A DNA stretch of 64,000 nucleotides from Blasia pusilla (Eukaryota). Position numbers and translations under genes: made by a program. Location of the stretch: contig CM114271.1 in NCBI GenBank assembly GCA_050084515.1, positions 27,094,001-27,158,000 on the forward strand, read 5' to 3'. Positions 28,909 through 31,900 of the stretch are shown piece after piece (within the stretch, counting starts at the first letter, position 1; each line of letters begins with the position of its first letter). The notes under the pieces were generated by a model that saw only the letters and a program-made list of their open reading frames with translations, searched no databases and was not told the DNA's origin.

Positions 28909-31900
28909 AATCCATATCGCTACACAACATACATGGTTGTCACCGAACACACACACAAACACGCACGATCCCATGCTAACTCATGGCATCCAAACACAGA
29001 GGCGAGAAGTACCAAAATATCTCCAATAAAGTAAGATCCAATCTCTCTCTACACCATCTCACACCATAGCTCTCAAAGGTGTGCACTCTCTCTCATGTCA
29101 AATCAAACCCACTCTCCTAATAAGAGGCTTGGGTTATACTCACAAGGCAAGGGACCATAGCTCCGCCGCCTCATGCCAAGAGGTTCAACAAAGAGAGAAT
29201 GAGCTCTCAAGCTCTCTCTCTTGAGGTATACCTCTCCCCACTCCCAATCTCTCTCCATGGTAACCTATTCTCCCAAGTCACCTCCTTGGCTCTTGACCTG
29301 ATGTAGGAGGTCAAGGAACATTTACCAAAAATAGAAAATTGACCATATACTCAGAATGGTACTTACCTAAAATAGTAAGTTCCTCAATATTTCCCCAAAT
29401 GAGCCGAAACGAAGGGAAAACCTGCTCTCTCAAGTTTCCCGGGGCCTCAGCAGGTCATCCTCAACCTACTGAGTCTGGCCTCCACTACTCAAAAAGGCAC
29501 TCTACTAGATCTCACCGATTTATCGTAAAAGACGTGACAACTGTCGTGCGCATACACATCGCTGTCACCGAACATACACAGAAACACGCACGATCCCATG
29601 CTAACTCATGGCACCCAAACATAGAGGCGAGAAGTACCAAAATATCTCCAATCGTCCCCCTAGTTGGTGGTTAGGTCCCTCTAACTCCAGATAGCCATCT
29701 ATCCCTACCTACCAGGACATACATCTCTAGCACGCTAAGAGCAGAAAGGCCGGATGCTCATGTGGCCCCATCGTTAGTCGCCTTCCTGTCATCCATGTCA
29801 GAGAAAAAGTCGGAATCAAAACCTATCTAGTATCTCCTCTATGTATATTTGGGACACATCCATTGTCCTCGAGGAACCCTAGTGAGAGGTGCCGTCAGAC
29901 ATGCCATATGCCAACCTCTCGAACATCCATCACAGACTAGCATCGTGGCCGCACCACGAGCACAACCGCACAACATACAATGCAAGCCTGCAAGAACTAC
30001 TACTGAGCTCGAATCTATTGTACCATCAATGTTAGGAAGGTGACATGGCACAAAATTACGCACATGGTCCTTCCATACCATACCATCGCGTCCCTCCAAC
30101 AAGAGAACAACGGATGGCAAAACCTCACGCACTCTCAGGATAGTGCGCCCTACAGTCACATCCAACGTTGTCGGTGCTGTCTGCTGCAAGAAGACATAAT
30201 CTCTTTAATGAAACCTCTGGATAGTTGGTTGATAACCACCTACCCAAATAGTCGCATACCTCAACGTATCCCGATACTGCGCAATCGCCAAGTTCTCGAA
30301 CGCCATGGGCATCACTCTCCAAAACAACTCAGCCCTATGAGAACATGCTCGCATCCATACATCTTGGTCATCAAGGTCCAGCACCTCACCAGCATCTCGA
30401 CGAATGGCCGTAGGAAAATCTGGCGCTTGGCCCTAAAATAGTAAGTACGGTGAAAAAGACGCTAAGGATGCCTGCATGCTGAATCTATATCCCATCGCCA
30501 ACCATGGCAACTGGAGGTCGCAATCTCCTAGGTGACCTCTCTGCAAGCCATACTTGTGTAAATCCCTCTTCACCGTCTGCACAACTCTCTCCGCTAATCC
30601 ATCCGCCTTGGGATGATCTCGTGAAGTCGTGCGGTCGTCGATCAGCGCGTGATCACACAAGGCCTAGAACTCACCGCAAAACTCGGTACCTTGGTCTGTC
30701 AACACCTCAGCCGGTGCGCCATAATGACTGAGCACTCTGTCAAGGAAGGCATAAGCTACTCCCTCACTCGCTTTTTCAGGCAGTGGAACCAACTCGATCC
30801 TTTTCGAGAAGTGCTCGACCATCACCAACACATAATGACTGTGACGCTCCGTCAAAGGCAAAGGTCCTGCAAAATCCAAACTCCATCTATACCGTAAGCC
30901 CATGATTGGTAATGGATGCAATTGTGGAGTCGGAGCATTGAACGATGCTCGGACCGGATCACACACCATGCACCAGGCAACAAACTGCTGAACGTCAATT
31001 TGCATGCCTCGCCAACAATAGTGAATCTGGAGCAAGTTGTACGTCCGCTTCACCCCAAAGTGACCCAACTCCTCGTGGGCATGTTGCACTAGTAGTGCTC
31101 TCTGCAAAGGATGCGGCACTACGCGTACTCTACCATCCTCCCAAACCTTCAAAACATGTGTCCCCTCCCAACGGAACCGTCTGGCCTGCTGTAGGATCCG
31201 ATCCCGCTCTCTAGCACCCACGGTGCTCGCAACGCTACCAGTATGAAGGTACTCCAAGACTACTCCATCATCATGAATATCTTGGCCACCTGTGGTCTCC
31301 TCACTGGCCTCGGGATCCAAGGACTCTCCACTAGACCTCACCATCCAAGTCTCCACACTTTGGCTCTCCATAGCCAACATGCCTTAATAGGCTCACGCGG
31401 GCCATCCTGGCACTGACTCCTCATCACTCTCTCCATACCATCGAGCTCCATGCGCATCTCGCTGACCCGGGCATGGGTTACGACTCAACCCATCTGCATC
31501 CTGGTTGAGCGTCCAAGGTCTATGTACCACCTGAAAACCATACTCCTGCAACAAAAGAGCCCATCTCGCAAGCTTCCCTATAAGCTTGTCGGACTCTACC
31601 AACCACTTCAATGGTTGATGATCAATGATGATGGTAAAGGGGTTGCCGAATAAGTAACACCTGAAATGCGCGACAACCCACACTGCAGCCAAGCACTCAC
31701 CCTCATACGAGCTCTACTTTAGCGGCTAGCGTAAGCCACCACGAACTCTCTACCCTCATCATCATGCTGGGTGAGCACCGCTCCAAGCCCCAATCTTCGC
31801 AATCGAAGTGAATCCCTTGACGTACCGTCGATAGAAGTTCGCCAATCCCATGAATGCGCAAACACGGCTCACATTTGTAGGACGTGGAATGCTTGAGATA

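Follow-up and report, generated by a model that had tools for sequence, protein, structure and literature searches.

Here, we report a family of decayed retrotransposons in the liverwort Blasia pusilla in which the integrase (INT) ends in a PHD finger. The window (the whole stretch of DNA analyzed; 64,000 nucleotides of GenBank assembly GCA_050084515.1, contig CM114271.1, positions 27,094,001 to 27,158,000, with all coordinates below counted from its first letter) holds copies of a Ty3/Gypsy element of the Gypsy-DNMT3 kind, named for its DNA methyltransferase (DNMT) domain. The element has the order gag, protease (PR), DNMT3-type methyltransferase, reverse transcriptase (RT), RNase H (RH), INT, and PHD finger (gag-PR-DNMT3-RT-RH-INT-PHD), with the position of PR taken from relatives (P0129). 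Comparison with related proteins places the locus as a decayed, liverwort-type member of this known kind, with a finger that falls in the unmodified-histone-H3-tail class. The window contains two finger-bearing family copies, a third that is truncated ahead of the integrase, and an additional 3′ end; all are dead pseudogenes, and none can be active.

The sequence-only reading that preceded this analysis had claimed a C4HC3 finger in two copies, each with different ligands lost to Tyr, and had named a PF00628 search as its check. On the minus strand at 29839-30204, a 121-amino-acid open frame ends in C-x2-C-x11-C-x2-C-x4-H-x2-C-x14-C-x2-Y, followed by one residue and a stop. This finger, in copy 2 (29845-29979, minus strand), keeps seven of its eight zinc ligands; codon TAT at 29845-29847 encodes Tyr where the last Cys is expected, and one Thr codon (29842-29844) stands between it and the stop codon of the Pol polyprotein (29839-29841, minus strand). 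Translation of 16448-16750 (minus strand) gives the same finger in copy 1 (16454-16588), with six of eight ligands, the fourth Cys and the His each having become Tyr. The copy 2 finger (P0001) scores 36.4 bits against PF00628 (E value, 5.3e-9) and the copy 1 finger (P0002) scores 28.6 bits (E value, 1.4e-6), both above the curated cut-off of 24 bits and far beyond chance. The same profile also matches residues 744-787 of the copy 2 Pol translation (P0003; E value, 6.7e-8). Both parts of the earlier claim stand: the canonical C4HC3 spacing is retained despite the lost ligands, and the ligands lost to Tyr differ (one in copy 2, two others in copy 1). The finger stretches of the two copies are 85% identical over 279 nucleotides (nt), within a longer repeat. 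Pfam listed only PHD-type families for the window finger and no ADD family, and a look-up of the finger in the ESM Atlas returned generic PHD clusters only (scores, ≤0.85), which are silent on origin.

Copy 2 (28931-33256, minus strand) is internally deleted upstream of the C-terminal part of RT. Read as a single frame, 29842-32208 (minus strand) encodes by Pfam the C-terminal half of RT (31942-32202), RNase H (31540-31716), the H2C2 zinc-binding domain of the integrase (30958-31104; PF17921; E value, 8.8e-14), the rve catalytic core (30619-30888; PF00665; E value, 2.1e-11), and the PHD finger, with 11 in-frame stops along its length. The C-terminal region of the integrase, from catalytic core to finger (29980-30618, minus strand), is in frame with two in-frame stops and aligns over its whole length with intact INT-PHD proteins, such as P0005 (75% identity, 100% coverage). 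The finger is in frame with the integrase even in this decayed copy, as its C-terminal module, and it occupies the place at the integrase C terminus where chromoviruses have a chromodomain, just as had been proposed. An out-of-frame finger, which the sequence-only reading had named as grounds against itself, is not what the sequences show. No match to the chromodomain family PF00385 was found in the copy 2 Pol (P0003) at an E value of ≤0.1, and the element is by this measure not a chromovirus. The rve integrase and the H2C2 zinc domain of the window, with the PR-RT-RH-INT order as it stands in the intact P0129, identify a Ty3/Gypsy element.

The ends of copy 2 were resolved by repeat comparison. 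On the minus strand, its 3′ terminal repeats read B (29652-29556), A (29540-29027), and B (29027-28931), and its 5′ A repeat lies at 32750-33256. Identity is 93.8% between the two B units (over 97 nt) and 93.3% between the 5′ and 3′ A repeats, and the A unit is found again at 6139-6652, 32750-33256, and 51684-52184. With B-A-B at 28931-29652 and the 5′ A at 32750-33256, the terminal layout is A-coding-B-A-B (DIRS-like). A long (GA)n/(TC)n microsatellite (28600-28980) abuts the terminal B repeat, and a degenerate, coding-like stretch of low complexity occupies 27800-28650.

A methylation writer had been claimed for the same element, and it is present in copy 3, upstream of RT, as a DNMT3-type cytosine methyltransferase domain (56406-56993, plus strand; PF00145; E value, 6.6e-10). 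In translation, this domain shows motif I, the PC motif, and ENV; the wider translated region (56292-57700) has 11 stops. Against solved structures, the best match of this domain is DNMT3A (E value, 9.8e-10; query residues 39-234), followed by DNMT3B, DNMT3C, and then plant DRM. The internal region of copy 3 (53473-59514, plus strand) runs from gag-like open reading frames (ORFs) with a zinc knuckle through the DNMT to RT (58054-58533) and RNase H (58819-59109). No Pfam match to a protease was found in the copy 3 stretch where relatives have one. The 5′ A repeat of this copy lies at 51684-52184 (plus strand, by repeat comparison), and its homology to the other copies stops at ~59423, ahead of integrase and finger.

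Intact relatives show the finger to be a conserved part of this integrase. A search with the stretch from integrase to finger returned 147 near-length and 133 longer proteins, of which 240 were analyzed (the 120 listed near-length and the 120 listed longer matches). Counted by hand from precomputed Pfam columns, PF00628 occurs in 104 near-length and 99 longer matches (of 120 listed in each group), and a finger profile built from 24 fingers matches 209 of the 240 relatives; 25 of the 31 that it missed end too early or are without an integrase match. In a profile survey of the relatives, a median of 369 residues separates the start of the finger from the preceding start of the integrase zinc domain, and this position is shared by ~200 relatives from liverworts, charophytes, and chlorophyte algae. 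The eight ligand columns, together with an M, an L, a P, and a W, are invariant in all 24 aligned fingers. Among the matches listed, the closest named relatives are proteins of the liverworts Calypogeia fissa, Riccia sorocarpa, and Marchantia polymorpha (Mp_7g09570), at 71-81% identity. Klebsormidium nitens proteins come next (50-53% identical to the window integrase region), and those of chlorophycean algae (Tetrabaena, Pleodorina, Haematococcus, and Chlamydomonas eustigma) are 40-48% identical to the same region.

The finger is also where these proteins end. The closest intact relatives stop 1 to 6 residues past it (P0005 and P0006 within 1 to 3 residues of a complete finger), and of the close relatives that have the window's layout and a pattern-detected finger, 28 of 29 end ≤20 residues past it, which rules out further domains after the finger for the window's sub-clade. 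P0129 is a single ORF of 2,358 amino acids with PR, DNMT, RT, RH, INT, and PHD. The algal layout, with the DNMT between RNase H and integrase (e.g., P0042, P0130, and P0131), has a tail of median 321 residues after the finger. In six sampled proteins, this tail gave no Pfam match at an E value of 1e-3, except for a chromodomain in P0117, a distant relative with an INT-PHD-Chromo arrangement. One Marchantia gene model annotated as “PHD-type domain” (P0034, Mp_7g09570) joins a DNMT fragment, the C-terminal part of an integrase, and a finger of this same family; it is probably a transposon copy in decay, taken for a host gene in the annotation.

DNMT domains were detected among the 240 relatives with phmmer, using the DNMT segments of two relatives as queries, and a DNMT-like domain was found in 131. 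It lies between protease and RT in 19 relatives (the window's layout, shared with K. nitens P0157 and with P0129; first layout below) and between RNase H and integrase in 82 (second layout); 29 partial relatives without RT have the DNMT directly upstream of the integrase, which fits the second layout. Finger and DNMT occur in the same ORF in 115 relatives, comprising 15 of 19 with the first layout and 100 of 111 with the second. The pairing of a reader domain with a methyltransferase in one element, as put forward from the letters of the window, is accordingly kept in 115 intact or near-intact database ORFs, and these sequences indicate that it is the rule in this lineage, from chlorophyte algae to liverworts. 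In 94 aligned DNMT domains (14 of the first and 80 of the second layout), motif I, the catalytic Cys, and ENV are conserved in both layouts, as are two further blocks, “...AHRxR.fWTN” and “ERE..G”.

In an integrase tree of 218 sequences, rooted on a single mollusc outgroup, the window falls within a clade of 54 members that includes Klebsormidium and Calypogeia (support, 0.945). First-layout proteins branch as a basal grade in this tree, and second-layout proteins make up a large derived group; we tentatively read from this that the DNMT stood before RT first and after RNase H later. Within the second-layout group are nested four proteins that have the finger and no DNMT, which suggests that the DNMT was lost in them. 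A search with the first-layout DNMT domain matched 119 proteins, among them second-layout proteins at 36-42% identity and entries from Closterium and Monoraphidium; no host DNMT3 by name occurs among the 119, all of which are transposon-type or unnamed. Because there are two domain orders, DNMT sets that are 36-42% identical, and no named host DNMT3 among these matches, the sequences suggest one capture of the DNMT, followed by relocation and long co-retention with the finger. P0257, a “DNA cytosine methyltransferase” from a metagenome-assembled genome labeled Candidatus Obscuribacterales, is 47% identical to the transposon DNMT domain and probably belongs to a eukaryotic contig misbinned as bacterial.

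The class of the finger was approached by sequence and by predicted fold. Searched against all solved structures, the finger profile gave 125 matches, the best 60 of which include CHD4 PHD1/2, KMT2C/D, KDM5 PHD1 (Lid, 5A, 5B, and 5D), ATXR5, WSTF, PHF12, DPF3, BAZ2A/B, KAT6A/B, PHF21A, ORC1b, UHRF1, and AIRE; no ING- or BPTF-type finger is among these best 60 of 125. The finger of the closest intact relative, modeled with AlphaFold (mean predicted local distance difference test score, 83.6), has as its best Foldseek match the ATXR5 PHD-histone H3 complex (5vab; template modeling scores, 0.79/0.85; root mean square deviation, 0.9 Å; 43% identity), followed by BAZ2B, DPF2/3, UHRF1, KMT2C, Lid, MOZ, BAZ2A, BHC80, and CHD4/5. 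Several of the top fold-match entries name “unmodified H3” in their titles. The model is matched by 43 solved chains at an E value of ≤0.001, and all 47 fold matches listed are PHD-containing entries; the predicted fold is that of a PHD finger. ATXR5, a plant H3K27 monomethyltransferase, is among the best matches in sequence as well (E value, 2.1e-20); it is a host chromatin enzyme and not a mobile element.

By profile and by model, then, the nearest solved relatives of the finger belong to the subclass that reads the unmodified H3 tail (H3K4me0). Most of these related fingers bind the H3 N terminus with K4 unmethylated. In ING/BPTF-type readers of H3K4me3, a cage Trp precedes the ligand His by two residues; the 24 aligned fingers of this family have a near-invariant Gly at this place. 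Also near-invariant are the strand-forming “MLLCD” and the C-terminal “P-x-G-x-W-x-C”, both shared with the aligned KDM5/Lid, ATXR5, and CHD4 fingers.

The closest described element is KnitGypsy-Dnmt3 of K. nitens, presented in de Mendoza et al. 2018 (PMC5890265) as a Gypsy element with an A-coding-B-A-B repeat layout. It resembles the window element in having a DNMT3-type domain in Pol and these same repeats, with the layout compared by its legend text. A DNMT-bearing Pol of K. nitens, P0157, has the PR-DNMT-RT-RH-INT order of the window. It is a partial model that ends ~45 residues before the finger and shares 79% identity with a K. nitens INT-PHD protein across 361 residues, so that, judged from sequence, the published Klebsormidium family probably has the finger too. 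The difference lies in the host, since the window's closest named relatives are the liverwort proteins at 71-81% identity. In the main text and one supplement of PMC5890265, which leave figure 4c and the PDF supplements uncovered, “PHD” occurs 0 times. We found no published text that discusses a PHD finger paired with a Gypsy DNMT3, a statement to which the same uncovered figure 4c and PDF supplements may hold an exception.

PHD fingers in the Pol proteins of retrotransposons are already in print, in passages of PMC6673714 and PMC9940879, and PMC8557442 describes them as a common accessory domain of Chlamydomonas elements. REM1 (Perez-Alegre 2005) and Gypsy-7a_cRei (Craig 2022, PMC9940879) are described as Chlamydomonas long terminal repeat (LTR) retrotransposons with a PHD finger in Pol and a proposed influence on the insertion site, and intergenic insertions of Gypsy-7a_cRei are given as 2.6 times more frequent than expected. 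These are, as far as those descriptions go, green-lineage LTR elements with the finger in Pol, like the window family; in contrast to the DNMT3 of the window family, no DNMT is listed for Gypsy-7a_cRei in its legend (PMC9940879). Fusions of PHD and Chromo domains with transposons have been catalogued by Grau-Bove et al. (as outlined in bioRxiv 10.1101/2021.11.30.470311), and chromodomains of chromoviruses direct integration to marked chromatin, according to the relevant passages of PMC6673714 and of the same preprint. With both PHD fingers in retrotransposons and Gypsy-DNMT3 elements published (PMC6673714, PMC9940879, and PMC5890265), the idea is less new than the sequence-only reading had implied.

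Chromoviruses (e.g., MAGGY) share with the window family a histone-reader module at the C-terminal end of the integrase and differ in that the module is a chromodomain there and a PHD finger in the window Pol. The ADD domain of animal DNMT3A/B/L is a cysteine-rich reader of the H3 tail. In animal ADD-DNMT3 proteins and in this element alike, a single gene product combines a cysteine-rich reader with a DNMT3-type catalytic domain; the element finger differs from ADD in matching Pfam PHD and in being attached to the integrase, at least about 1,000 residues from the DNMT in P0129, rather than beside the catalytic domain. EpiLTRs of Cymbomonas and Euglena, as summarized in bioRxiv 10.64898/2026.05.21.726589, are LTR retrotransposons with DAM, a DNMT4-related DNMT, and a chromodomain. 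They too combine DNA methyltransferase domains with a chromatin-reader domain and differ in that the reader is a chromodomain, the DNMT is DNMT4-related, and DAM is added. The same summary calls Gypsy-DNMT3 a streptophyte element, distinct from EpiLTRs (bioRxiv 10.64898/2026.05.21.726589).

With moderate confidence, we read the finger as the C-terminal integrase PHD of a decayed Gypsy-DNMT3 element that, in active relatives, would tether the integrase to H3K4-unmethylated nucleosomes. The tethering is suggested by the finger standing at the chromodomain position as the last module of Pol and by its relatives holding the H3 tail. In active relatives, the finger would bring integrase and complementary DNA to nucleosomes with an H3 tail unmethylated at K4, and new copies would land away from active promoters. 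The finger would in this way do the chromodomain's job via a different histone state, with the DNMT3 of the element as a second accessory enzyme, placed separately. The sequences themselves show the identity, frame, position, and conservation of the finger; which histone state it binds and how it affects insertion sites we infer from this position and kinship. Several observations weigh against the tethering. Six relatives are long enough and yet have no detectable finger (one of them the mollusc outgroup), and a DNMT match is missing from four full-length relatives that do have the finger; because some relatives are without the one and some without the other, finger and DNMT are each dispensable. 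In the window's sub-clade, the second Cys is followed, ahead of the first strand, by a Gly/Ala-rich “GAATML”; an acidic cluster takes this place in many algal relatives and in the KDM5/Lid finger, and the specificity of the sub-clade within the H3-tail class may therefore differ. Selection against genic insertions is another way to explain why copies cluster in a transposon island.

The sequence-only reading had gone further, to a mobile reader-writer module that chooses targets by H3K4 state and methylates itself. Its architecture and its reader class stood, and what speaks against the coupling is that finger and DNMT are separated by RT, RNase H, and integrase in the window layout. Under such coupling, the main task of the finger would be to recruit or license the DNMT3 of the element on H3K4-unmethylated chromatin, in the way that ADD works for animal DNMT3, for methylation of the element itself or its flanks, and targeting would be secondary; we regard this as unlikely. 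It gains from the 115 relatives with both domains in one ORF, in two layouts, from the DNMT motifs conserved across the 94 aligned domains of both, and from the second layout, in which the DNMT lies directly upstream of INT-PHD and one mature DNMT-INT-PHD protein is conceivable. Retrotransposon DNMTs are described as capable of de novo CG methylation (in the abstract of PMC5890265), and protist and algal host DNMT3s as having no companion domains (in passages of PMC12344493). In the window layout, however, protease processing would normally part the two domains, and since they are probably split in this way, they need not be one module. The finger matches Pfam PHD with no ADD family listed, the four relatives noted above keep it without a DNMT match, and its fixed position right after the integrase resembles the targeting modules of other Gypsy elements. 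It is likewise doubtful that finger and DNMT3 constitute an ancient reader-writer pair, carried by transposons and retained together across green algae and early land plants as a mobile counterpart of ADD-DNMT3. In the algal layout, such a pair might even be one mature protein that methylates the new copy or its flanks.

A role away from histones, be it the binding of a host protein or nucleic acid, integrase multimerization, nuclear import, or mimicry of a chromatin protein to evade silencing, strikes us as rather improbable. PHD-type fingers do bind non-histone peptides, and the fold matches include the UHRF1 PHD with PAF15 and Stella peptides; the missing acidic cluster of the window's sub-clade would also suit such a role. 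The top neighbors in sequence and fold are, however, mostly H3-tail complexes, and the “MLLCD” and “P-x-G-x-W-x-C” blocks common to the KDM5/Lid, ATXR5, and CHD4 fingers are near-invariant in the family. That the finger is foreign to the element, as a chance Cys/His pattern or a captured fragment of a host exon beside an integrase remnant, is scarcely credible. The decayed state of the local copies is all that favors it, and it is refuted by two Pfam scores above the cut-off, by the frame shared with the integrase, and by the same junction in ~200 independent proteins.

The remaining family copies are broken in different ways. Copy 1, from its gag-like part to the finger (16448-25400, minus strand), has frameshifts and numerous stops and shares 80-82% identity with copies 2 and 3. 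Its integrase region holds a 2.1-kb insertion (~17187-19330) that carries an opposite-strand gag-like ORF (18447-18812), which by eye resembles the gag of the same family and suggests a nested self-insertion. The further 3′ end of the family (6012-6953, minus strand), consisting of B-A-B and a 3′ untranslated stretch, is 90.5% identical to 28950-29840; its homology stops near the position of the Pol stop codon, and no finger remains.

Around copy 3, an 853-nt inverted repeat (50637-51481 and 53089-53934; 79.6% identical) lies on both sides of the 5′ A repeat, with one arm overlapping the start of a gag-like ORF, and suggests a rearranged or head-to-head partial copy. Between this 5′ A repeat and gag, tandem units of ~19 nt (52203-52883) are open in three frames and rich in Pro/Arg/Ser/Thr. 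Where the homology of copy 3 is over, an unbroken ORF of 516 amino acids (59832-61382, minus strand) has a C-x-C...C-x-H pattern that is SWIM-like by eye, and two more long ORFs follow on the same strand (61481-62209 and 62474-63175). None of these three ORFs gave a Pfam match at an E value of 0.01; the region may represent a DNA transposon to which copy 3 lost its integrase and finger.

Between copies 1 and 2, 2,330 aligned sites show 373 differences (237 transitions and 136 transversions). The Cys-to-Tyr changes had raised the prospect of decay like that by repeat-induced point mutation, which was rejected: only 82 of 178 changes polarized among the three copies are C>T or G>A, and these are spread over CG, CHG, and CHH contexts. 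The window copies have decayed as silenced repeats ordinarily do, with a bias toward deamination, and this explains the Cys-to-Tyr and His-to-Tyr changes of the ligands.

The window as a whole is a transposon island. Beyond the family described here, it holds a Copia RT (1494-2495), an RT fragment (38.8-39.3 kb), and a second Gypsy-type LTR element with internal ORFs at 42448-46440 (plus strand; zinc knuckle, RT, and rve integrase), bounded by direct repeats (35838-37098 and 47670-49519) that lie ~11.8 to 12.4 kb apart. No PHD or chromodomain match was found in the ORF after the integrase of this second element. No window ORF of ≥150 amino acids matched a non-transposon Pfam family, and most such ORFs had no match at all.

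The interest of these sequences lies in the conservation of the DNMT3-PHD pairing across the family and in two layouts, and not in a dead locus whose copies are themselves without consequence. The lineage appears to do both of two known things, using a borrowed histone reader for its landing site and a DNA methyltransferase of its own. If the element does write its own mark, a DNMT-INT-PHD protein would integrate the complementary DNA into H3K4-unmethylated chromatin and methylate on the spot, giving the element a low-profile chromatin state of its own making. Should the finger read H3K4me0, it would be a compact integrase-tethering module for unmethylated H3K4, and the family would offer a simple natural system for the joint use of chromatin state and self-methylation.

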